From positions 2,912,001 to 2,976,000 of the forward strand of contig OY762007.1 of assembly GCA_963665115.1 (NCBI GenBank): 64,000 nucleotides of DNA, read 5' to 3'. This DNA comes from an uncultured Rivularia sp. Lineage in GTDB: Bacteria > Cyanobacteriota > Cyanobacteriia > Cyanobacteriales > Nostocaceae. Both the position numbers and the translations under genes were made by a program. Positions 20,987 to 34,029 of the stretch are shown here, piece after piece. The first letter of the stretch is position 1; every line of letters begins with the position of its first letter. The notes under the pieces are model-generated. The model saw only the letters and a list, made by a program, of their open reading frames with translations, was not told the DNA's origin and did no database searches.

Positions 20987-21307
20987 ATGTCATTTAGCAG
21001 GTCAGGCATCAACCTTAGCGTGTTTTTTTTGTCTCTAAAAGATTTTATTTTAGACAGATTCAAGCTGCAAAAGCATAAAACCCATGATTTTACTGAGTGT
21101 GTACCTGGAACAGACTACGTATTTGAAGTTGCAGAAAATCTTACAACAGCTTACATGACAGCGCGGGGTAAAGGTGTCAAAGCTGACGACTATATAGTTT
21201 TACAAATCGGCTCGGAATCTTATCGATATCAAGTAGAACAAATTGACTATTACTCGAACCCACCTGATATGTGGATGGCTTTAATCAAAAAAGTCACGAA
21301 CGATTAA
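20987..21307 (+). CDS. Hypothetical protein
   Basis: 106-aa ORF; plausible small beta-rich domain (G.GVK..DYIVL..Y.VEQIDYYSNP.DMW). Confidence 0.6.
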   Translation: MSFSRSGINLSVFFLSLKDFILDRFKLQKHKTHDFTECVPGTDYVFEVAENLTTAYMTARGKGVKADDYIVLQIGSESYRYQVEQIDYYSNPPDMWMALIKKVTND

Positions 21308-21902
21308 CAAGTAGTTAACAATAACGCATCTTTATTTTATAACTATATACATATCGCCAAAGAAATATTCGTATATCAAACTAATTAATACTTTTTCTAT
21401 TACTATCTACTAAGAATACTAAGCTTCTATACAATTACACATTTCAATTTTACATTAACTTTATATATATGTTAACTTCATAAATTATCCGGAATTAGTT
21501 ACCCATACTTACGTATATCTTTTAAGATTATACTTAATTGCCTACAGAGCTATACAGGGCTACCTAAAGCAAACATCTACCGCTACATACAGCAAGTTGC
21601 ACTCTTGTAACCGATGCCTTTTTGACTTAAATTCTCGGATCGGGGAAAATAATTTGGGTCAAATCTGTTAACGTGCCATGTTCTTTTTACTTATTCGTGC
21701 TTCAGCTAATACCTGATAGCTTGATAATGAGTACAAGTATCTACCAATAGTTATTTGGGTAACAACAAATATCAGGACATCTAAAACGATAAACTGTCTT
21801 GTAAGCTACTTGATATATCAAGTGATATCACTTATGTTAAAAAAAGTTTGATACAGGTTGCAGAGGAAAAATCAACAGATTAGAAAAAGGAAGTGTCCTA
21901 CA

Positions 21903-22205
21903 ATGATAACTTCAACAACAGATTCCATGATTTCGGAAAAATCTATAATAGTATCTGTGAAAAATCAAATTTCTTCCGATCTTGGTGGTGAAGCGGTGAT
22001 TTTAAACATGAACACCGGAACTTACCACGGTTTGAATGAAGTGGGTGCTTTTGTATGGAACTTGATTGATCAACCGCAAGTCGTAAAAGATATTCAACAA
22101 AAGCTTTTACAAGAGTACGAAATTGAAGCTTTAATTTGTACTAAAGATTTGTTTGCACTGCTTAACGATTTGCACGGTGAAGGGTTAATTGAAGTTAAGA
22201 ATTAA
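21903..22205 (+). CDS. Lasso peptide B1 / PqqD-family RiPP recognition element (copy 1)
   Basis: SDLGGEAVILN...G.YHGLNEVG..VW.LI; close paralog of 28618-28935. Confidence 0.9.
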   Translation: MITSTTDSMISEKSIIVSVKNQISSDLGGEAVILNMNTGTYHGLNEVGAFVWNLIDQPQVVKDIQQKLLQEYEIEALICTKDLFALLNDLHGEGLIEVKN

Positions 22206-22645
22206 ACGCCTGTGTAATTGTTTTAAATTTCTAGGTGTAATAGGTGCTTTCGATTAACTTCCGTATTTTACTTTCAGTTATCAGATTAGATTAGAACTGT
22301 GGTTTCTACCGTTTCGAGTTTTATTAAAAAAAGTTAGTTTACTCAAACTGTATTTAGGTCACGTATATTAAACCAAATTTCTGTCAGTAAAGTTATTTCG
22401 GCTGTAAATATAGCTACTTGCTATACACTTAGGCAATCAAAGTATTTCACACTATCGCGTTTACTACTAAGGTGTTGATGAGTCGTTGTGCTTGTCTTCT
22501 TGAACTTACAGGTATTATTTTCTGAGTAAGTAAAACTTTCTGGCTCATGCTGGGATTAAATACAAGAAAAGGGTTGTAATTAATTCCGTAAGTAAACCTT
22601 TAACGATTTATCTCACTACCATCTCTCGAAGGAATCAGATTATGA
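22201..22645 (+). pseudogene. Degraded lasso B2 leader peptidase
   Basis: Fragments IRLELWFLPFRVLLK, AVNIATCY..QSKYF, TTKVLMS, AHAGIKYK..VVI and RFISLPSLEGIRL* align with the intact B2; start is ATT instead of ATG; several frameshifts. Confidence 0.85.
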
Positions 22646-24672
22646 GCGGTATCGTAGGTATTTGCTACCTGGATAAAAGTCCTGTAGAACAACAAAATAT
22701 AGCGCGAATGATTGATACATTGGCGCATCGGGGACCTGATGGTGCAGACATCTGGGTAGATGGTTCTGTGGGCTTAGGACACCGGATGTTATGGACTACT
22801 CCTGAGTCTTTGATAGAAAAACTGCCTTTAGTCAATCAAAGGGGCGATATAGTTCTTACTTCTGATTGTCGCATAGATAATCGCGAAGAGTTGATTGCTG
22901 CATTACAGTTAAATAATCGTTCCTCCGAGAAAATTACTGATAGTGAATTAGTTCTGGGTGCCTATGAGAAATGGGGTGAAGAATGTCCGGAACATTTGTT
23001 AGGTGATTTTGTCTTTGCCATTTGGGATAAGCGAAAACAGACTTTGTTTTGTGCTAGAGATCATATGGGGGTTAAGCCATTTTATTATTTCCATCAGCCG
23101 GGTAAACTGTTTGCTTTTGGTAGCGAGATAAAAGCGCTGTTATCTTTGCAGGATGTACCGCGAAGGCTGAATGAAATTAAGGTAGGCGACTATCTAGCAT
23201 CAAATTTTCAAGATAAAGTTGAAACCTTTTATCAAGATATCTTTCGTCTTCCACCTGCGAGTTGTTTAACTTTAAATCGGAAAGGATTGCAAATTCGTTC
23301 TTATTGGTCTCTCGATCCAGAGCGCGAATTATGTTTAAGTTCTGATGAGGAGTATGCAGAGGCATTGCAGGAAATCTTTGCAGAATCAGTACGGTGTCGG
23401 TTGCGTAGCGCTTTTCCTGTAGGTTCTCATCTCAGTGGTGGACTGGATTCTTCTTCTGTCACCTGTATGGCACGGAAAATTTTAGAAGAAAAGAATTCTA
23501 AGTTACATACTTTCTCTAATATATTTGATACAGTTACTCAATGTGACGAACGCCCTTTTATCGAAGCTGTACTTGCTCAGGGCGGAATGAATCCTCACTA
23601 CGTCCACGGCGATGAACTCGGACCTCTATCAGACTTAAAACGAATCTTTAAATATCACGACGAAGTATTTTTTGGTCCCACTCATTTTCTAGTTTGGGTA
23701 GCCAACCTTGCAACAGAGAATCAAGGTATCCGAATTGTACTTGATGGCTTTGACGGCGATACCACAATTTCTCACGGTGATGGTTATTTTACCGAACTAG
23801 CACACAAAGGACAATGGGCTGCTTTTGCCAAGCAAGCGAATGATATTGTTCAACGTGCGGGGGGTGGTTCACCTTTAAATATTCTGAGGAGTTCTGGTCT
23901 TACTTATGTAGAAGACTTAGCACGAAAATCAAACTGGCTTGGTTTTGCCAAAGAAACTCGTCAGATATCCAAATACTTTGATATCTCCCAGCAACAGATT
24001 CTTGTGCAACATGGCTTAAAGCCATTGATTCCTGAGTCTGGGCGGCTAGCTTGGCGAAAACTACGCGGACACAATGAGCCGATGCTTAACGCCAATTGGC
24101 TATTTAACCGCAGCTTTGCTCAAAAAATCGGCTTGAAAAAACGTATTAAGGCTTTAGATGAATCTCAGTCTCATCTTCCCGTGACAGAAAGGGAGTATCA
24201 CTGGCGTTATCTAACTTGGGGCTTAGTCGGGTATGCGATGGAGACGTTGGATAAATCATATGCAACCTTTTCAATCGAAGCCCGTCATCCATTCATGGAT
24301 AAACGATTAATTGAATTTTGTCTCTCCTTACCGCCGCAGCAAAAGCTCAACCAAGGATGGACTCGCTTAGTTATGCGCCGTGCCATGCAGAATATTCTTC
24401 CCGAACAAGTGCAGTGGCGACAAACTAAATCTAAAATGACTGCTAGCTTTATACATGGGCTACTCAATCTAAACCGTCAGGTGTTAGATGATTTGATGCA
24501 AAATCACCTTGAGCCAATCGCTACCTACGTAGATATAAATGCTCTGCGTCAAGGCTATGAAAAATTGACATCTAGTAGCAAGATTGGTTCTTATGAAAAT
24601 TCCATATTAATTGAAATATGGAAAGCAGTTACCCTTAGCTTCTGGTTGCGTCACAGCCAGATTGAGTATTAA
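22642..24672 (+). CDS. Lasso peptide cyclase (isopeptide bond-forming, AsnB-like), copy 1
   Basis: MSGI N-terminus (no catalytic Cys1), HRGPD, SGGLDSS, DGFDGD, PFMDKRL; flanked by B1 and precursor. Confidence 0.92.
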   Translation: MSGIVGICYLDKSPVEQQNIARMIDTLAHRGPDGADIWVDGSVGLGHRMLWTTPESLIEKLPLVNQRGDIVLTSDCRIDNREELIAALQLNNRSSEKITDSELVLGAYEKWGEECPEHLLGDFVFAIWDKRKQTLFCARDHMGVKPFYYFHQPGKLFAFGSEIKALLSLQDVPRRLNEIKVGDYLASNFQDKVETFYQDIFRLPPASCLTLNRKGLQIRSYWSLDPERELCLSSDEEYAEALQEIFAESVRCRLRSAFPVGSHLSGGLDSSSVTCMARKILEEKNSKLHTFSNIFDTVTQCDERPFIEAVLAQGGMNPHYVHGDELGPLSDLKRIFKYHDEVFFGPTHFLVWVANLATENQGIRIVLDGFDGDTTISHGDGYFTELAHKGQWAAFAKQANDIVQRAGGGSPLNILRSSGLTYVEDLARKSNWLGFAKETRQISKYFDISQQQILVQHGLKPLIPESGRLAWRKLRGHNEPMLNANWLFNRSFAQKIGLKKRIKALDESQSHLPVTEREYHWRYLTWGLVGYAMETLDKSYATFSIEARHPFMDKRLIEFCLSLPPQQKLNQGWTRLVMRRAMQNILPEQVQWRQTKSKMTASFIHGLLNLNRQVLDDLMQNHLEPIATYVDINALRQGYEKLTSSSKIGSYENSILIEIWKAVTLSFWLRHSQIEY

Positions 24673-24813: not shown

Positions 24814-25005
24814 ATGAAGAAAACTTACGAAGCACCCAAACTCACCAACCACGGTACAGTAGCTCAAATGACCAATTTCTTTGGTAAAGGAGATGGAGAC
24901 ACTTTAATTGGTCCAGGTCCCAATGATGACACAGGTAACCCTGGTGGTTCCATCGATGCTTGTGCAACATTCGACCAGGGCAACTGCTTCGGTAAAGATA
25001 ATTAA
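24814..25005 (+). CDS. Lasso peptide precursor A1 (21-aa leader + 42-aa core)
   Basis: Leader YEAPKLTNHGTVAQMT matches Y-x-x-P-x-L-x3-G-x5-T; AGGA RBS; core Asp at positions 6 and 8. Confidence 0.9.
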   Translation: MKKTYEAPKLTNHGTVAQMTNFFGKGDGDTLIGPGPNDDTGNPGGSIDACATFDQGNCFGKDN

Positions 25006-25030: not shown

Positions 25031-25368
25031 TGCAAATTTGACTGCAACTCGAATGTACATTAAAGGCTTACTTCTGACAAATTCAGCATTACCGAACAAG
25101 TTCTAATCTAATATGAGTACAATACTCATGCTTCAGGGAATTCATCTAATTTGATATCTGTATCTACCATCGAGAGTTCAAAGTCTGAATCAATTCACTT
25201 TGATAAAAGACTTTGAACCTCGACACCTAACAAAGCAATGTCGATTAATTCGTACCAATTTATTTGCTTGAGAAGTCAAAGTAAGCAATTGTAAATTCGA
25301 CTGCAACTCGAATGTACATCTAAAACTTAACTCTGACAATTTCAGCATTACCGAACAAGCTCTAATCT
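25031..25368. repeat. 79-bp direct repeat pair (25031-25109 and 25290-25368)
   Basis: Ungapped alignment, 69/79 identical by manual count, 259-bp period. Confidence 0.9.
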
Positions 25369-25553: not shown

Positions 25554-26489
25554 ATGTTCACCTATTCTGCCTACAATCTTCGTATTGACTCTGAAATTTT
25601 CTTCTCCGAACTTGTAACTTCTCAGGAGGACTTAAGCCGAATCGAACAACTACCCCAAATAATCATACAGCAACGTGAAATCAATCGCTCAGAAATTAAA
25701 AATGCGAATGGTGGCGATCGCTTTGTAGGATATTTAGAAATAAATAAATTACAGTCGTGTAGGTTTTTAGTAGAATTTGGTCGCAAGATTGTGATTGAGC
25801 CTGTCTTAGGAATCGCAGACAATATTATTCGTCCCTGTATTCTCGGTCCGATATTTAGCGTACTGCTGAGGCAAAGAGGACTGCTGGTTGTCCATGCTAG
25901 TTGTGTTGGTATTGATGATGAAGCTGTTGCATTCCTTGGAAATTCAGGATGGGGTAAGTCAACCTTGGCTAATGCTTTTTATAACCAAGGATATCCCCTA
26001 CTTACCGATGATGTAATGGCAATTGAGATTAACAAAGGAAATGAAAGCAATGCAATTACTTTTCCTGCTTATCCCTGTGTGAAACTGCTGCCAGATTCGG
26101 CTGCCAGTTTAGGATACGATTTTGAGGAACTAGCTGTAATTAACTCAGGTTTACTCAAGCGTCATAACAGTCTTACTGAAAAATTTGTACAAAAGCCTTT
26201 ACCCGTCAAGCGAATATACGCATTAGAAAATATTGCAGCCCCTCGTCATGAAGTGCAAACGCTTTCTTCTCAAGATGCACTTGTAGAATTGGTTCGTCAT
26301 TCTCGTGTTACGAATTTATTGACTACTCCTGAATTCACTAGTGCTCATTTGCATCAATGTACGCAACTGATAAAAAAAGTACCTGTTTATCGTTTGAGAA
26401 GACAAAAAACGCTAGCCGCACTTCCCGATTTAGTAAAACTTATAGAAGATGACGTTGCCAAAAGTAATCGTGTAATATCATATACCTAA
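25554..26489 (+). CDS. HPr-kinase-like lasso peptide kinase (PadeK-type), copy 1
   Basis: HAS, Walker A GNSGWGKST, LTDD. Confidence 0.85.
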   Translation: MFTYSAYNLRIDSEIFFSELVTSQEDLSRIEQLPQIIIQQREINRSEIKNANGGDRFVGYLEINKLQSCRFLVEFGRKIVIEPVLGIADNIIRPCILGPIFSVLLRQRGLLVVHASCVGIDDEAVAFLGNSGWGKSTLANAFYNQGYPLLTDDVMAIEINKGNESNAITFPAYPCVKLLPDSAASLGYDFEELAVINSGLLKRHNSLTEKFVQKPLPVKRIYALENIAAPRHEVQTLSSQDALVELVRHSRVTNLLTTPEFTSAHLHQCTQLIKKVPVYRLRRQKTLAALPDLVKLIEDDVAKSNRVISYT

Positions 26490-26583: not shown

Positions 26584-28398
26584 ATGCAAGCAGGCAAATT
26601 AAAAGAAAAATTCCAAAGTACGCAACGCCTATTGCCTGCTTTGCGACTGGTTTGGCAAAGTAGCCCTCGCTGGACGATCGCCCGCGTAGTAATTTTGATT
26701 GTTCAAGGTATTCTGCCTGTAGTGGGAATTTATCTGGGCAAACTAATTATAGATACAGTAGCAGCCAGCCTCACTACTGCCGATAAAACCGCAGCTTTTA
26801 ATAATGTAATATTTTTCGTTATCTTAGCAGCAGCAATCGCCCTATTAACTAACCTTGCTAACTCCCTCGGACAATTAGTTACTACCGCTCATTCCCAGCG
26901 AGTAACCGATTATATGCAGGGAATTATTCAAGCGAAATCAATTGCGGCAGATTTAGAATACTACGAAAATCCCGTATACTACGACGTATTACAAAGAGCG
27001 CAACAAGAAGCGCCTTACCGACCTCCGCAAATCCTAAATCGTTTGGCACAGGTTGGTCAAAATGCGATTACTTTAGTTGGGATGATTGCTTTACTGCTGT
27101 CGCTGCACTGGGGAATACCCGGTGTTCTTTTTGTTGCATCCTTTCCGGCTATGGTAGTGCGAGTAAAATATTCTCAGATAATGTATCGCTGGCAGCGCAA
27201 AAAAACACCAATGGAACGTCAGGCAGCTTACTTGGGCTATATGCTGACGGTAGACCAGTTTGCTAAAGAAATTCGTTTATTTAATTTAGGTTCTCACTTC
27301 TCTCAAGCGTATCTTCGCATCCGCAAACAGATATATAAAGAAAGTCTTGCGATTCTAACCGGACGTTCTTTAGCTAGTTTTGCAGTTGAGGCGATCGCCG
27401 CTATTTTAATTTTTGCAATTTATTCTTATATTATTTATCAAACTATCAACGGTGTGCTGCGTTTGGGGGATTTAGTCCTGTACTATCAAGCGTTGCAGCG
27501 GGGACAGGGCAATATCAAAGGTTTATTGAACAGTTTATCTGGACTTTATGAGGATAACTTGTTTCTGGCGAATCTCTACGAATTCCTTGATATTAAACCC
27601 AAGTTAATCGATCCTCCCAACCCCGAACCAATTCCTCATCCAATGAAAACTGGGATTGAATTTAAAAATGTCGGTTTTCAATATTCCACAACTACCCGTC
27701 AGGCACTTAAAAATATTAACCTGACAATTAAACCTGGGGAAGTAGTAGCCTTGGTGGGGGAAAATGGTTCAGGTAAAACTACTTTAATTAAACTTTTATG
27801 TAGATTGTACGACCCTACCGAAGGCAGAATTACCATCGATGGTATCGATCTAAGTCAATTTAAAACTGAAGAATTACGCCGTCAAATCAGCGTGATTTTT
27901 CAAGACTATGCAAAATATCACTTTACTGCTCAGGAAAATATTTGGTTGGGAAACATAGATTTACCACCGCAAAGCGACAGCATCATTAAAGCAGCACGGC
28001 GTTCTGGTGCGGATGATGTAATAAAAAAATTACCCAAAGGTTACGATACCATCTTGGGTAAATTATTTGACAAAGGCGAAGAACTTAGTATTGGACAGTG
28101 GCAAAAAGTTGCTTTAGCGCGGGCATTTTTGCGAGATTCCCAGCTAATTGTTTTGGATGAACCCACCAGCGCAATGGACCCCAAAGCAGAATATGAAGTG
28201 TTTGAAAAGTTCCGCCAATTAATTAAAAATCAATCCGCGATTTTGATTAGCCATCGCTTATCTACCGTGAAAATGGCCGATCGGATATACGTCATGGATA
28301 ATGGAACAATTGTCGAAGGTGGTACCCATCAGGAGTTGATGAAGTTGAAGGGTACCTACGCTCATTTGTTTGAAATACAAGCTAGTCAGTATATGTAA
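26584..28398 (+). CDS. ABC transporter, fused permease/ATPase (peptide exporter type)
   Basis: TM domain, GENGSGKT, LSIGQWQK, LDEPT, ISHRL. Confidence 0.92.
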   Translation: MQAGKLKEKFQSTQRLLPALRLVWQSSPRWTIARVVILIVQGILPVVGIYLGKLIIDTVAASLTTADKTAAFNNVIFFVILAAAIALLTNLANSLGQLVTTAHSQRVTDYMQGIIQAKSIAADLEYYENPVYYDVLQRAQQEAPYRPPQILNRLAQVGQNAITLVGMIALLLSLHWGIPGVLFVASFPAMVVRVKYSQIMYRWQRKKTPMERQAAYLGYMLTVDQFAKEIRLFNLGSHFSQAYLRIRKQIYKESLAILTGRSLASFAVEAIAAILIFAIYSYIIYQTINGVLRLGDLVLYYQALQRGQGNIKGLLNSLSGLYEDNLFLANLYEFLDIKPKLIDPPNPEPIPHPMKTGIEFKNVGFQYSTTTRQALKNINLTIKPGEVVALVGENGSGKTTLIKLLCRLYDPTEGRITIDGIDLSQFKTEELRRQISVIFQDYAKYHFTAQENIWLGNIDLPPQSDSIIKAARRSGADDVIKKLPKGYDTILGKLFDKGEELSIGQWQKVALARAFLRDSQLIVLDEPTSAMDPKAEYEVFEKFRQLIKNQSAILISHRLSTVKMADRIYVMDNGTIVEGGTHQELMKLKGTYAHLFEIQASQYM

Positions 28399-28617: not shown

Positions 28618-28935
28618 ATGACTTATCCACAACCTGACGTGCGCGAAATTGCAGAATCATCAATAGTAGTAGCTGCTGAAGAGCAAATCTCTTCCGACCT
28701 TGGCGGCGAATCAGTTATCCTGAACATGAAAACAGGAGTCTACCACGGTTTAAATGAAGTGGGTGCGCGGGTGTGGGATTTGATTGAGAAGCCAAAAGCT
28801 GTGAAAGAGATCAAACAGGTACTCCTCAAAGAGTACGAAGTTGAGCCAGATGTTTGCACCAACGACCTGTTCTCACTATTAAATAATTTAAAAACCGCAG
28901 GGCTAATTAAAGTAACAAATGAAACTGCTGCGTAA
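28618..28935 (+). CDS. Lasso peptide B1 / PqqD-family RRE (copy 2)
   Basis: SDLGGESVILN...G.YHGLNEVGARVWDLI. Confidence 0.92.
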   Translation: MTYPQPDVREIAESSIVVAAEEQISSDLGGESVILNMKTGVYHGLNEVGARVWDLIEKPKAVKEIKQVLLKEYEVEPDVCTNDLFSLLNNLKTAGLIKVTNETAA

Positions 28936-29356
28936 GCTTTGGAATCTGAGAAAAGTTAATTTTTACTTCTTATTTGTTACTTACTTTTTACTAGGAGCAA
29001 TTCGGTTAGGGTTGCTGTTGCTGGAATTTCGCATCTTATTAAAGATAATAAATAAACTTATTACGATAAATTTGCCACTCCCTAATGCTCGTTTAAGTCA
29101 AATTCTTTGGGGTGTCAATGTTGCAACCCGCTATATGCCAGGTGGTGCAAAGTGTTTAGCAAGAGCTTTAACTACTCAAGTATTGATGAGTCATAGTGGT
29201 TTTCCCCCGGAATTGTGCATAGGGGTTGCTAAAGGAGAGAAAGGAGAATTAGAAGCGCACGCTTGGATTAAATATCAGGGATACGTTGTTATCGGTTATC
29301 TACCAGATCTACCACGCTACATTCAACTACCATCCCTTGAAGGAATTAAATTATGA
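28919..29356 (+). CDS. Lasso peptide B2 leader peptidase (transglutaminase-like)
   Basis: Catalytic motifs AKCLARAL and AHAW; overlaps B1 and is coupled to the cyclase by ATGA. Confidence 0.92.
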   Translation: MKLLRKLWNLRKVNFYFLFVTYFLLGAIRLGLLLLEFRILLKIINKLITINLPLPNARLSQILWGVNVATRYMPGGAKCLARALTTQVLMSHSGFPPELCIGVAKGEKGELEAHAWIKYQGYVVIGYLPDLPRYIQLPSLEGIKL

Positions 29357-31281
29357 GCGGCATCGTAGGTATTCACTACTTTGACGAACGTCCTGTAGAC
29401 CGCGAAAACTTAACAAAAATGGTTGATATATTGGCGCATCGCGGCCCAGATGGTGCAGATATCTGGGTTGATGGGTGCGTTGGTTTGGGACACAGGATGT
29501 TATGGACTACTCCCGAATCACTTATAGAAAAGCTACCTTTGGTAAATCAGAGGGGCGATTTAGTAATTACAGCAGATGCTCGGATTGACAATCGCGATGA
29601 ATTGATAGCTGCTTTACAGATAAATAATCGTCCTGCTGATAAGATTACAGATAGCGAGCTGATACTGGCAGCATACGGGAAATGGGGCGAAGATTGCCCA
29701 AAGCATTTATTAGGTGACTTTGCATTTGCGATTTGGGATCGGCGTAAGCAGATGTTATTTTGCGCTAGAGACCATTTTGGGGTGAAGCCTTTCTACTATT
29801 ACTCTGCTAACAATACTTTTGTTTTTGGTAGCGAGATAAAAGCAATCTTTTGTTTACCAGAGGTTCCTCGTGAGATTAATGAGGTAAAAGTTGCTGAGTA
29901 CTTATCTATAGAAACAGACGATAAAAGTATCACTTTTTATAATGACATTTTGCGGCTTCCTCCTGCCTGTAAAATGATTGTAAAGAGTAAAACTGTGGAA
30001 TTACAGTCTTATTGGTCTCTTGATTTTACTCGCGAGTTGCGATTGAGTTCGGACGAAGAATATGCAGATACTTTCCGTAAAATCTTTACTGAAGCAGTAC
30101 GCTGTAGATTGCGTAGCGCTTTTCCTATAGGCTCAATGTTAAGCGGTGGCTTGGATTCTTCGTCTATCACCTGTGTAGCACGGAAGTTCATCGCAGAGAA
30201 AGAAGAAAAAAATAAATTACACACTTTCTCAGCAGTTTTTGATAAAGTAACCGAATGCGATGAGCGTGTTTTTCAAGATGCAGTTCTTGCCCAAGGAAAT
30301 ATTGAACCGCATCACTTTCATGCTGATGGATTCAGTCCTTTAACCGATTTTGAACAAGTTCTTTGGCATCAAGATGAAGCTTATTCTGCTGGTAACTTAT
30401 ATTTAAATTGGAATCTTTATAAACCTGCTAGAAAAAATGGTGTTCGCGTTATTTTAGATGGATTTGATGGAGACAGTACCGTATCTCATGGTTTAGGATA
30501 TTTAACTGAATTAGCCAGTAAGGAGCAATGGTTTCAATTAGCTATACATATAAGAAATTACTGTACAAGAATAGGTAAACCTTGGCAAGAAGACTTATGG
30601 AGTTGGATATGGGTTTATAAAATTAATCCTATTATTTGCAAATCTCGCATTCTTACTAAAGCATGGCGCAAATCACAAAAATTGTTTCAAAAAAATCAAC
30701 TTCAAAAACCAGCTTGGAGAAGATTAATTAATTCAGAATTTGTTAAGCAAATTAACTTAATTGAGCGTCTAAGAAATCAACCAAATCCCCCAACAACCGA
30801 ACGGGAAACACAATACCGTTGTTTGATGGAAGCAGGTATGGTTCGTACTCTGGAAAATTTAGATAGAACAGCAAAAGCATATGGAATTGAACTTCGGTTT
30901 CCTTTCTGGGATAAGCGGCTTATAGAATTCTGTCTATCTTTACCTCCGGAGCAAAAGATATCAAAGGGTTGGACTCGGATGGTAATGCGTCGAGCGATGA
31001 AAGATATCCTACCGCAAAAAGTGCAATGGCGAGTCGGTAAATCAAATATGCATCCAGGATTTGAAAGAGGATTGCTCGAATTTGAGCGATTGCGCTTAGA
31101 GCAAATCATTTTACATAACCCGAAAGTAATTGAAAAGTATGTAAATATCGCTGCCCTACAGCAAGCATATCACCGCTACCTGTCTAAACAAGCAACAGTG
31201 GAAGAAGTTAACTCTATTTGGAAAGCTTTTTCTCTAGCTCTGTGGTTAGAACACAAGAATTTGCCAAAACAGAGCTTGTAA
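29353..31281 (+). CDS. Lasso peptide cyclase, copy 2
   Basis: MSGI, SGGLDSS, DGFDGD, PFWDKRL; paralog of 22642-24672. Confidence 0.92.
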   Translation: MSGIVGIHYFDERPVDRENLTKMVDILAHRGPDGADIWVDGCVGLGHRMLWTTPESLIEKLPLVNQRGDLVITADARIDNRDELIAALQINNRPADKITDSELILAAYGKWGEDCPKHLLGDFAFAIWDRRKQMLFCARDHFGVKPFYYYSANNTFVFGSEIKAIFCLPEVPREINEVKVAEYLSIETDDKSITFYNDILRLPPACKMIVKSKTVELQSYWSLDFTRELRLSSDEEYADTFRKIFTEAVRCRLRSAFPIGSMLSGGLDSSSITCVARKFIAEKEEKNKLHTFSAVFDKVTECDERVFQDAVLAQGNIEPHHFHADGFSPLTDFEQVLWHQDEAYSAGNLYLNWNLYKPARKNGVRVILDGFDGDSTVSHGLGYLTELASKEQWFQLAIHIRNYCTRIGKPWQEDLWSWIWVYKINPIICKSRILTKAWRKSQKLFQKNQLQKPAWRRLINSEFVKQINLIERLRNQPNPPTTERETQYRCLMEAGMVRTLENLDRTAKAYGIELRFPFWDKRLIEFCLSLPPEQKISKGWTRMVMRRAMKDILPQKVQWRVGKSNMHPGFERGLLEFERLRLEQIILHNPKVIEKYVNIAALQQAYHRYLSKQATVEEVNSIWKAFSLALWLEHKNLPKQSL

Positions 31282-31500: not shown

Positions 31501-31669
31501 ATGAATTCTCAAATTAAAAAGTCTTACATCGCACCTGAATTGACTACTCACGGTAACGTTGAGGAAATCACTTTACAAGGGGTCTTTACAGAATGCAGAT
31601 GTACCTAACGGACCTAATGGCACTGCTAACTGTTTTGCAGGTAGTACAGATCCATCTTGTATCTCATAG
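31501..31669 (+). CDS. Lasso peptide precursor A2 (not in ORF track; +1 frameshift in G-run 31579-31582)
   Basis: MNSQIKKSYIAPELTTHGNVEEITL leader with AAGGA RBS; removing one G gives core QGSLQNADVPNGPNGTANCFAGSTDPSCIS*. Confidence 0.85.
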
Positions 31670-31830
31670 TCTAAGCAATTGCTACTGATAAAAAAGTAGC
31701 TTCTGATTAGGTAAATGACAGGAAGTAGATGTCTATAATATTGGCATCTACTCCCATTCATTTACTCTTACAAACTATAGAGCACAAGTTTTAGCTTATT
31801 AAATAATTGATTCTATTAAAAGAAAAACAA

Positions 31831-32751
31831 ATGTATTTTTATAAAGCATACGGTCTTTTATTTCGCTGTAGCTTTGATTTACCAGAATTTATCACTACTG
31901 AAGAAGCAGAACCTGATGTTGTAATCACTCGGGGTAAGATAGAACATTCTTTTCCCGAGCATATACCCGCCCAAGGCTACTTTTATGCTACAGAAAATGA
32001 GGCATATTTTGCTTGGCAGACAATTGGAAAATTTTTAGTCAGAGATGGTAAAGAGATTATTATCGAATCTTTACAAACTGCTGAAGAAAGAATGATTCGT
32101 TTACCGCTTGTGGGAACTATTTCAGCGGTACTGCTTCATCAACGCGGGTTATTAGTTTTACACTCTAGCGCTGTGGCTATCGACGGAAAAGTAGTTTCTT
32201 TTGTTGGTGAAAAAGGGTGGGGTAAGTCAACAATGGCTGCAACCCTTTACGGAAGGGGACATATTCTTATGTCTGATGATGTAGTTGCTTTAGACATGAG
32301 TAACCCAACAAAACCTATGGTTATTCCTGGTTTCCCACAGTTCAAGCTATACCCTGAAGCCGCAGCTTTTTCTCTTGGAGATAACCCTGAAACGTTACCC
32401 ATAGTTGCTTCTGGCTATGACAAGCGGATTCGCCGCATTACTGAGAATTTCTCAGTACAATCTTTTCCTCTAACTCATATCTTTGTTTTAGGACAAGGTT
32501 CGGTACCAGAAATCAAGCCACTGTCAAATCAAGAGTCTTTAATACAATTAATTACTCATTCTTACGCAAGTAGATTTGGTCAGAAACTGTTAACTGGAAA
32601 CAGAGCGGCACAACATCTTCATAATTGTACGTCATTAATTAAAAATATATCTATTTATAGTTTAGAACGTCCCAAATCTTTGCCATTATTATCAGAAATA
32701 GCACAGTTAGTAGAGACGCAAACTCAAAAAATAGCTCAAATATTAGTGTAG
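31831..32751 (+). CDS. HPr-kinase-like lasso peptide kinase, copy 2
   Basis: LHSS, Walker A GEKGWGKST, MSDD. Confidence 0.85.
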   Translation: MYFYKAYGLLFRCSFDLPEFITTEEAEPDVVITRGKIEHSFPEHIPAQGYFYATENEAYFAWQTIGKFLVRDGKEIIIESLQTAEERMIRLPLVGTISAVLLHQRGLLVLHSSAVAIDGKVVSFVGEKGWGKSTMAATLYGRGHILMSDDVVALDMSNPTKPMVIPGFPQFKLYPEAAAFSLGDNPETLPIVASGYDKRIRRITENFSVQSFPLTHIFVLGQGSVPEIKPLSNQESLIQLITHSYASRFGQKLLTGNRAAQHLHNCTSLIKNISIYSLERPKSLPLLSEIAQLVETQTQKIAQILV

Positions 32752-32898: not shown

Positions 32899-34029
32899 AT
32901 GAAAACTTTATCTAAACCCGATACTAAAAACCAGATAATCAATACTTGTCCCGAAATAGAACTACTTCTATCTTCCCTTAACCCCGATATTAATGATGCT
33001 GTAACAGAACGCATCAAAGCATTAGTTAAACAAAACATTGATTGGCAATACTTAACCCAAACAGCAGATAGACATGGGGTATTATCTCTACTATATTCTC
33101 GCATCAATAATATTTGCCCAGAAGCGGTACCAGAACTACTCTTAAATCAATGGCGCAACAGTTTTCAATACGTTGCACAACGCAACTTGTTTTTAACAGG
33201 TGAACTTGTCAATCTTCTGAAATTATTAAAAGAACAAAATATTGTAGCTTTACCTTATAAAGGACCTATTTTAGCGACTTTAGTTTACAAAAATGTGGCT
33301 CTGCGACGTTTCGGAGATTTAGATATTATCGTACAACAAAAAGATATCTTTGCAGTACGAGAACTATTAATAGCCCAGGGATATCGACTTTACAAAGAAA
33401 TGACTGATGCGGAGTTGGTAAAATACCTAAACTCTAAAACCGAGCATACTTATGATTTTATTCATGAAGATAAAAATGTCTTTTTAGAAATTCACTGGCG
33501 AATTGCACCGAAGTATATCACTCCTATCGAAGCGAAAGATTTGTGGCAAGATTTAGAATCTTTTTCTTTAGCTGGTACAACTATAAACAACTTACCTTTA
33601 GAAGATTGGCTACCAATTCTCTGCGTGCATGGTTCCAGACACGTATGGGAACGTTTATCATGGCTGTGCGACATCGCAACGTTGATTCATAAAAATCCAA
33701 ATATAAATTGGGAAAAAGTTGTCCAAAAGGCTAATCTGTGGGGTTGTCAGCGGATGCTATTTTTGGGACTTTATATGGCACATGATTTATTTGGTGTTAG
33801 CTTACCCACAGAAATTTGGCAGCAAATGAAAAAGGTTGAGCCTATATTAAGTGGTATTGCTCCCCAAGTATATAAGCAGCTTTTTGGCGAAGTTAGAACT
33901 TCTGATAAATTTATGGGAAGAACTCTTTATCACATTCAGGTAAGAGAACGTTTAAACCATAAAATTTTGTATATTCAATCTTTTATTTACTGGTTGGTTA
34001 AAGGTAAAAAGGAGATAGTTGATAAATAA
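32899..34029 (+). CDS. Nucleotidyltransferase family protein (PadeN/PsmN-like)
   Basis: PYKGP, RRFGDLDI, EIHW, HG..H.W.RL.WLCD; follows the lasso kinase. Confidence 0.85.
   Translation: MKTLSKPDTKNQIINTCPEIELLLSSLNPDINDAVTERIKALVKQNIDWQYLTQTADRHGVLSLLYSRINNICPEAVPELLLNQWRNSFQYVAQRNLFLTGELVNLLKLLKEQNIVALPYKGPILATLVYKNVALRRFGDLDIIVQQKDIFAVRELLIAQGYRLYKEMTDAELVKYLNSKTEHTYDFIHEDKNVFLEIHWRIAPKYITPIEAKDLWQDLESFSLAGTTINNLPLEDWLPILCVHGSRHVWERLSWLCDIATLIHKNPNINWEKVVQKANLWGCQRMLFLGLYMAHDLFGVSLPTEIWQQMKKVEPILSGIAPQVYKQLFGEVRTSDKFMGRTLYHIQVRERLNHKILYIQSFIYWLVKGKKEIVDK

Follow-up and report, generated by a model that had tools for sequence, protein, structure and literature searches.

A predicted cyanobacterial lasso precursor with a long two-cysteine core and a candidate mid-tail phosphorylation site

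Two lasso-type modules at the locus

We analysed a 64,000-nucleotide stretch of the genome of an uncultured Rivularia sp. (contig OY762007.1, positions 2,912,001 to 2,976,000), referred to here as the window. It encodes a cluster in the order B1a, C1, A1, K1, ABC exporter, B1b, B2, C2, A2, K2 and nucleotidyltransferase, which forms two lasso-type modules, with A1 as the predicted precursor of the first. Every gene of the cluster scores over, or close to, the cut-off of a curated lasso model.

21858..22205, + strand: B1a, RRE/PqqD leader-binding protein (PF05402; NF033536 at 77 bits, cut-off 80)
22642..24672, + strand: C1, lasso cyclase cognate to A1 (NF033535 at 1029.8 bits)
24814..25005, + strand: precursor A1 (P0001), 63 aa (NF033528 at 42 bits, cut-off 33)
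25554..26489, + strand: K1, HprK-like kinase (by catalytic residues and model fold match)
26584..28398, + strand: ABC exporter, D (PF00005 and PF00664; MsbA-like matches under cut-off)
28618..28935, + strand: B1b, second RRE (NF033536 at 81.6 bits, cut-off 80)
28919..29356, + strand: B2 leader peptidase (NF033537 at 93 bits; PF13471)
29353..31281, + strand: C2, second cyclase, cognate to A2 (NF033535 at 937.3 bits)
31501..31669, + strand: precursor A2, short-core type, Ser-terminal, frameshifted in the window
31807..32751, + strand: K2, the cluster's other HprK-like kinase (Tyr in place of Arg251)
32899..34029, + strand: N, NTP_transf_5 nucleotidyltransferase (PF14907 at 221.6 bits)

The cluster is flanked on one side by a divergent Wzc-like gene with a tRNA-Gln and on the other by a convergent run of glycosyltransferase genes. 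The window also encodes a 464-aa membrane protein without a Pfam match, which by resemblance may be Wzy-like. The two cyclases are 52% identical and are the only proteins of the genome over the NF033535 cut-off. In C1, Ser2 replaces the glutaminase Cys and the SGGLDSS loop is intact; its matches in the PDB are limited to amidotransferases and asparagine synthetases. We assigned C1 to A1 because it groups with cyclases adjoining similar GS[IL]DAC cores (support 98), while C2 groups with those adjoining short terminal-Ser cores. B2 is the single leader peptidase of the cluster, presumably common to both modules, and no second protease gene was recognised there. By gene context, N is PsmN/BsfN/LppN-like.

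Three public runs (X1, X2 and X3), which belong to one study and are possibly the source of the assembly itself, gave contigs that could be compared with the window. The A2 frame of the window breaks within a four-G run (31579-31582). X1 and X3 contigs have one base fewer at 31579, leaving the frame open, and X2 agrees with the window, which makes the break a homopolymer variant; A2 varies either from sample to sample or through slippage. Its second piece terminates in Ser, and K2 clusters with kinases adjoining terminal-Ser cores.

The A1 precursor

The A1 ORF, preceded by an AGGA 9 nt 5' of its ATG, translates as MKKTYEAPKLTNHGTVAQMTN followed by a 42-aa core that opens with FFG and closes with Lys-Asp-Asn, the final residue being Asn.

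24814..24876, + strand: A1 leader, 21 aa, with the YxxPxL motif, Gly(-8) and Thr(-2)
24877..25002, + strand: A1 core, 42 aa, predicted ring amine Phe1 (register from relatives)

The core contains Asp6, Asp8, Cys29 and Cys37, seven Asp in all, and its sole Ser is Ser25, at position 25 of 42. Translation confirms the ORF, Thr(-2) and the Phe-initiated, two-Cys core of 42 residues described in the initial annotation, and its proposal that A1 is a lasso precursor is likewise supported. A1 scores over the cut-off on both NF033528, the lasso_cyano model (42 bits against 33), and NF033521 (20.2 bits against 19). Its leader carries YxxPxL and Thr(-2), an acidic residue lies within core positions 7-9 in the form of Asp8, and intact cyclase, RRE and B2 peptidase genes adjoin it. 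In addition, the family profile matches the leader peptides of the solved TbiA and TfuA. An AlphaFold2 model of A1 had low scores (pLDDT 63.5, pTM 0.27), and a scan for promoters and terminators around the gene gave signal no better than chance.

Contigs from all three runs span the A1 ORF with 0 substitutions and 0 indels, which excludes an assembly error as the source of its length, and the cyclase, RRE and B2 genes are also without indels in these runs. Measured against the closest locus, a Rivularia record (L039) with a 91% identical cyclase, dN/dS was 0.33 for A1, 0.14 for C1 and 0.23 for K1, the last indicating purifying selection. Between A1 and K1 lies a 79-nt repeat in two copies that are 87% identical (window 25031-25109 and 25290-25368), with no further full copy in the genome.

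A1 is typical of its own family

We compared A1 with two sets of related cores. The leader-only set comprises 99 unique cores from loci L009-L113, picked by leader pattern only, at loci that we chose from top and lower matches and that include near-copies. These cores are 22-58 residues long (median 41), with 49/99 at least 42 aa. They begin with Ala (27), Ile (15), Leu (12), Gly (11), Phe (10), Val (9), Gln (8) or another residue (7), and have no Cys (60), one (0) or two (39). The profile set comprises 219 unique cores from 221 profile matches; since the profile was built on motif-bearing precursors, conservation figures from this set are partly circular. Here the median length is again 41, Phe1 occurs in 22/219 and cores with zero, one and two Cys number 104, 2 and 113. 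An NF033528 precursor match was found in 99/201 genomes of the host family, 80 of them over the cut-off, and the family profile matches 20/301 genomes of the phylum and 691 representatives at 50% clustering.

The length, Phe1 and two Cys that had been called exceptional are therefore family-typical, as the leader-only counts indicate (median 41; Phe1 in 10 and two Cys in 39 of 99). A1 does exceed the characterised lassos, which reach 33 aa at most, as the initial annotation had held; judged by these sequences, it is exceptional relative to those alone and ordinary inside its own family, and the single A1 gene does not stand out there. Other features singled out earlier fared no better. Its net five acidic charges are equalled or surpassed in 43/216 related cores, and cation binding by the tail is not supported, as the acidic positions show no conserved pattern beyond the ring acceptor and the Asp within the tail motif G-S-x-D. 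Recurrence of FGK(G)D at both ends of the core had also been noted; a repeated tripeptide arose in 10,389 of 20,000 core shuffles (52%), and FG[KR] occurs in the last 8 residues of 0/216 related cores. On these counts, the 'FGKD' repeat of A1 is chance.

Two further observations concern precursor organisation. Leader-like stretches recur within the profile matches P0124 (5 of them) and P0171 (2), which are possible multi-core precursors. At L046:12522, a second precursor copy departs after the tail motif, resembling a frameshift of the first copy.

Cleavage site and macrolactam ring

24898..24900, + strand: Asp8, predicted isopeptide acceptor of an 8-residue ring (column invariant)

The cleavage and ring register is fixed by two columns of the profile set: Gly3, present in 189/219 cores (an x-F-G or x-L-G register after Thr-x), and the acceptor, which is Asp in 219/219. 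This conserved register supports the cut proposed earlier after the Thr(-2) residue pair, that is, after Asn(-1), and the LassoPred table divides relatives at the same site. The initial annotation had left the acceptor as Asp8 or Asp6. Alignment with homologous precursors, which it had suggested, bears out the former choice and not the latter: Asp8 is kept in 4/4 closest homologues, whose residue at position 6 is N, A, G or S/P, which speaks against a Phe1-Asp6 ring. Across the family the acceptor Asp falls at positions 8-10. Most relatives have Asp9 (201/216; Asp8 without Asp9 in 6/216), so the small sub-clade of A1 appears to have lost one ring residue. The rarer feature of A1 would thus be its 8-residue ring and not its length, Phe1 or Cys. 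A conserved hydrophobic run follows the acceptor, with Phe at +3 in 129/217 cores.

A conserved tail serine and a paired cysteine

24946..24957, + strand: G-S-I-D tail motif, core 24-27 (Ser in 213, Gly in 191, Asp in 192 of 219 cores)
24949-24951, + strand: Ser25, proposed phosphorylation site (no Thr in the column)
24961..24987, + strand: Cys29 ... Cys37, predicted tail disulfide (paired Cys in family)

The initial annotation overlooked the tail Ser of G-S-x-D, along with kinase K1 and the PsmN-like nucleotidyltransferase. In the profile set, where the motif itself contributed to selection, the Ser25 column holds Ser in 213, Ala in 2 and Thr in 0 of 219 cores, and its flanks vary more (Gly 191, Asp 192). 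After the ring Asp, this is the best-conserved residue of the core, and no other Ser or Thr is conserved in these cores. The leader-only set gives a similar picture, with strict G-S-x-D in 70/87 long cores and, read by eye, a variant Ser motif in most of the other 17. The distance from ring to Ser ranges from 12 to 36 residues across the family (median Ser position 26), which suits a free motif.

The core of A1 has two Cys and no more, neither of them within the predicted ring. Among two-Cys motif-bearing cores, the pair follows the Ser in 95/99. The near-absence of single-Cys cores (104/2/113 for zero, one and two) supports, as a prediction, the class IV-like tail disulfide suggested earlier. 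Since the paired Cys are conserved downstream of the Ser, trimming of the tail is disfavoured, though possible. Compensation by the disulfide for absent aromatic plugs found no support: aromatics after the ring average 1.58 in cores without Cys and 1.66 in those with two (p 0.41).

Kinase K1 and the co-inheritance of modules

The catalytic residues of K1 (His114, Lys135, Asp152 and Asp153) are intact, and its model (pLDDT 91.6) matches the PEPCK and HprK/P folds; a search of K1 against PDB sequences gave no significant match (best E 0.14). A complex prediction of K1, ATP and Mg with A1 (score 0.11, mark 0.32) weighs neither way. Among 48 loci with such long cores, which apart from the window's own span at most 22 kb and are in some cases truncated, we found a cyclase in 48, a kinase in 48, B2 in 45, an exporter in 45 and a nucleotidyltransferase in 34, N being absent from 14/48 loci as fetched. 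In 28/48, the window's Wzc or its 464-aa membrane protein has a homologue. A C-terminal Ser occurs in only 3/87 long cores, yet all 48 loci have an HprK-like kinase. Just upstream of B1, a 106-aa protein with no clear Pfam family (window 20987-21307) is syntenic in 22/48 long-core loci.

In a tree of 56 kinases, the labels long-core (44) and terminal-Ser (9) require 2 changes, and in a tree of 54 cyclases the same labels require 1; these are quick trees with long branches flagged, with 3 kinase and 2 cyclase rows labelled 'other' uncounted and the duplicate loci L074-L076 dropped. As cyclases sort alike, the kinase is not singled out by co-variation: the whole module is co-inherited, and kin among the kinases and cyclases are not independent. 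One residue does follow the type of core, with Arg251, the residue of K1, in 44/45 kinases adjoining long cores and Tyr in 8/9 of those adjoining terminal-Ser cores. Of 18 kinases fetched later, all 5 with Arg251 flank cores of 29-49 aa with a tail Ser; those lacking Arg251 had the tail motif in 0/9 cases with a recognised precursor, and 4 more had no precursor found. Type tracks the module and not its position, since in L047 and L048 it is the second slot that has the precursor with a long core, next to a kinase resembling K1.

Several loci depart from this arrangement. Short-type precursors at L101, L150 and L152 extend 3-6 residues past an otherwise terminal Ser, the one at L150 adjoining a copy that ends at the Ser; the extensions are either tolerated by the kinase or trimmed off, and they blur the contrast between long-core and terminal-Ser types. 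In L046, L047 and L048, B1, B2, D and N are near-identical to those of the window (74-96%) and the C-A-K trio is swapped, with C 54-59% and K about 40-47% identical to the first module of the window, suggesting cassette exchange. Finally, L092, L154, L157 and L160 have cassettes of RRE, kinase, GT2, B2, exporter and nucleotidyltransferase without a cyclase in the fetched DNA. Their precursors have lasso-type leaders and Gly/Thr-rich cores without Asp/Glu at 7-9, and possibly yield linear phospho- or glyco-peptides akin to LPPs.

A proposed maturation route and its alternatives

What we observed directly are the ORFs and their motifs, their conservation, the order of the genes and the spread of the family; from these and from related systems we infer all chemistry of A1 maturation. 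By family chemistry, an RRE (B1a or B1b) would bind the YxxPxL leader. K1 may well then phosphorylate Ser25 of G-S-I-D on the linear, RRE-bound precursor, a timing before cleavage that is modelled on PadeK, BsfK and LppK. The single B2 would, in all likelihood, cut after Asn(-1), and C1 would very probably adenylate Asp8 and close the Phe1-Asp8 ring around the tail, threading being our assumption. Cys29 and Cys37 would be oxidised and may act as a stopper, given that A1 lacks a large residue between Ile11 and Ile26. More speculatively, and doubtful as it stands, N, possibly with the neighbouring glycosyltransferases, would add a sugar to the phosphate as in pseudomycoidin, so that phospho-Ser25 would perhaps serve as a sugar anchor, and D would export the product, perhaps to the sheath. 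The frequent position of such clusters in polysaccharide loci hints at such a sheath role.

That ring, disulfide and phospho-Ser25 all occur together in the A1 product is a reading to which we give an even chance. A non-terminal phosphosite has precedent, since BsfK and LppK act on Ser3; those sites are near the leader and modification there is RRE-assisted, however, and the greater distance of Ser25 would count against it. Nor is conservation of Ser alone a universal kinase trait, as BsfK accepts Thr (PMC10368454).

Several of the same observations could be accommodated otherwise. It is distinctly unlikely, in our estimate, that G-S-x-D is instead structural, either the stretch threaded by the ring (in a class IV lasso whose loop is long and whose stopper is the disulfide loop just beneath) or a site of cyclase recognition, with the kinase acting elsewhere or on nothing. 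The order small, small, bulky (Gly, Ser, then R/I/Q/L/V), followed by hydrophobics or the Cys loop, does look like a threading point, A1 is free of bulky residues from Ile11 to Ile26, cyclases sort by precursor type as tightly as kinases, and loops of 20 aa are known, as in achromonodin-1 (PMC13352647). A steric site, however, should allow Ala, Gly and Thr, which the 213 Ser, 2 Ala and 0 Thr of 219 cores do not reflect, and neither the variable ring-to-Ser spacing of 12-36 residues nor an intact kinase in 48/48 loci without another conserved core Ser/Thr fits this view. The median Ser position of 26, a normal lasso length, raises another scenario, in which the tail is cut after Ser25 as a follower peptide to leave a 25-residue lasso with a C-terminal phospho-Ser, like paeninodin. 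PadeK, ThcoK, SyanK and PsmK are described as using a C-terminal Ser (PMC9266682, PMC8498205), two cores stop one residue past the Ser (L050, L153), and the short-type cores of L101, L150 and L152 have 3-6 residues beyond it. We nonetheless consider this improbable, for the strict pairing of Cys downstream of the Ser in about half of the family implies selection on the distal tail, B2 has no companion protease recognised in the cluster, and long-core kinases differ from those of terminal-Ser cores.

The peptide might also form its ring without threading (branched-cyclic), or stay linear like LPP peptides, and serve mainly as a phospho-glycan carrier. There is no obvious plug near the A1 ring, the solved lassos reported are all at most 33 aa (PMC12214591, PMC13352647), and the cyclase-less cassettes (L092, L154, L157, L160) share the leader, kinase and nucleotidyltransferase. 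Weighed against a cyclase in 48/48 loci, an acceptor Asp invariant at position 8-10 and a conserved hydrophobic run after it, with Phe at +3 (129/217) in the usual place of a plug, these points leave such a product hardly probable. As for the remaining earlier proposals, we regard ring closure on Asp6, a function for the FGK(G)D repeat or cation binding by the acidic tail as extremely improbable: the core does have 7 Asp and FGK twice, but Asp6 is not conserved, tripeptide repeats arise in 52% of shuffles with the C-terminal copy in 0/216 relatives, and the acidity falls inside the family range.

Novelty and implications

In the literature that we searched, with subscription journals largely outside it, we found neither an isolated cyanobacterial lasso nor a discussion of G-S-x-D; the genome papers, as far as we consulted them, give only genome-mining mentions (PMC9332814, PMC9967302, PMC11392904). 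No cyanobacterial product turned up in this literature, so that for cores of this length ring closure and threading stand as predictions. Were A1 matured over its full length, the product would exceed the 33-aa record, and its cyclase would be one that accepts a bulky first residue and a long tail, useful for display scaffolds. A mid-tail phosphosite, if true, would be the third position for an HprK-like RiPP kinase after C-terminal Ser and Ser3. Because A1/K1 and A2/K2 stand side by side with one B2, a single set of plasmids would suffice to probe cross-reactivity, and the cluster offers a handle on why kinase-type lasso clusters occupy polysaccharide loci. Extended to the whole family, the preferred reading of a phosphorylated, disulfide-bearing lasso would describe a subfamily that is widespread in cyanobacteria and comprises the longest lassos in nature (about 30-58 residues), in which a dedicated Arg251-type HprK-like kinase phosphorylates the mid-tail G-S-x-D Ser and a nucleotidyltransferase and neighbouring glycosyltransferases build a phospho-glycan that ties the disulfide-locked peptide to sheath polysaccharide. 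We offer this larger model tentatively and think it on balance unlikely in full.

Comparison with known systems

Closest to A1 are the predicted precursors of the NCBIfam model NF033528 'lasso_cyano', accompanied by NF033535, NF033536 and NF033537 enzymes; they have the same leader, cleavage site and long core. The LassoPred table (PMC12214591, supplementary file 3) likewise lists cyanobacterial cores with Phe1, two Cys and G-S-x-D, of 40-49 aa and as predictions only; rows resembling A1 include WP_009456424, WP_102174446, WP_169263806 and WP_171976621. These relatives mostly have a 9-residue ring, whereas that of A1 has 8. Phe1 is rare among characterised lassos but no longer without precedent: in palassoptide A1 (Phe1-Glu8), solved in 2026 and described then as unprecedented in this respect, NMR shows Phe1 closing an 8-residue macrolactam, as predicted for A1 (PMC13632552). 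Unlike A1, palassoptide A1 is a short, actinobacterial class II peptide with Glu8 as acceptor (PMC13632552), and the word 'kinase' is absent from that paper.

With both Cys in the tail, A1 resembles the class IV lassos pandonodin, LP2006 and felipeptins. PDB lasso structures are given as 14-33 aa (PMC12214591), and pandonodin, at 33 aa in total, has the longest known tail, 18 aa (PMC13352647); A1 surpasses this total by 9 residues. In the class IV clusters described (PMC9266682), kinase and nucleotidyltransferase genes are lacking.

Those genes are shared with the paeninodin and pseudomycoidin systems (PadeK, ThcoK, SyanK, PsmK, PsmN), which combine C, A, an HprK-like kinase, split B1/B2, an ABC exporter and NTP_transf_5 as here, and whose kinases have the His-Lys-Asp-Asp residues of K1. 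Paeninodin and LPP clusters are also reported often in polysaccharide loci, like the A1 cluster (PMC13381572). In those systems, the target of PadeK, ThcoK, SyanK and PsmK is a C-terminal Ser (PMC9266682, PMC8498205, PMC6993621), whereas A1 ends in Asn and has two Cys. WxxP is described as near-invariant in paeninodins (PMC13381572); A1 has YxxP, with Tyr in 211/219 relatives. The A2/K2 module fits the paeninodin type better than A1/K1 does.

The Bsf and LPP systems share with the A1 cluster an HprK-like kinase, a non-terminal Ser, a YxxPxL leader and a nucleotidyltransferase. BsfK phosphorylates the non-terminal Ser3 and accepts Thr (PMC10368454), and LppK phosphorylates Ser3 of a 45-aa core, rejects Thr and Tyr and is strictly Ser-specific (PMC13381572). 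Their Ser3 adjoins the leader, unlike Ser25, and position 3 of the A1 family is Gly in 189/219 cores; Bsf further differs in having Ile(-2). LPPs lack a cyclase and rely on a SipW-like signal peptidase, in contrast to the two cyclases and B2 peptidase of the A1 cluster. Taken together, these comparisons place A1, as far as its sequence and neighbours indicate, in a curated predicted family, as a class IV-like lasso with a paeninodin-like tailoring set.
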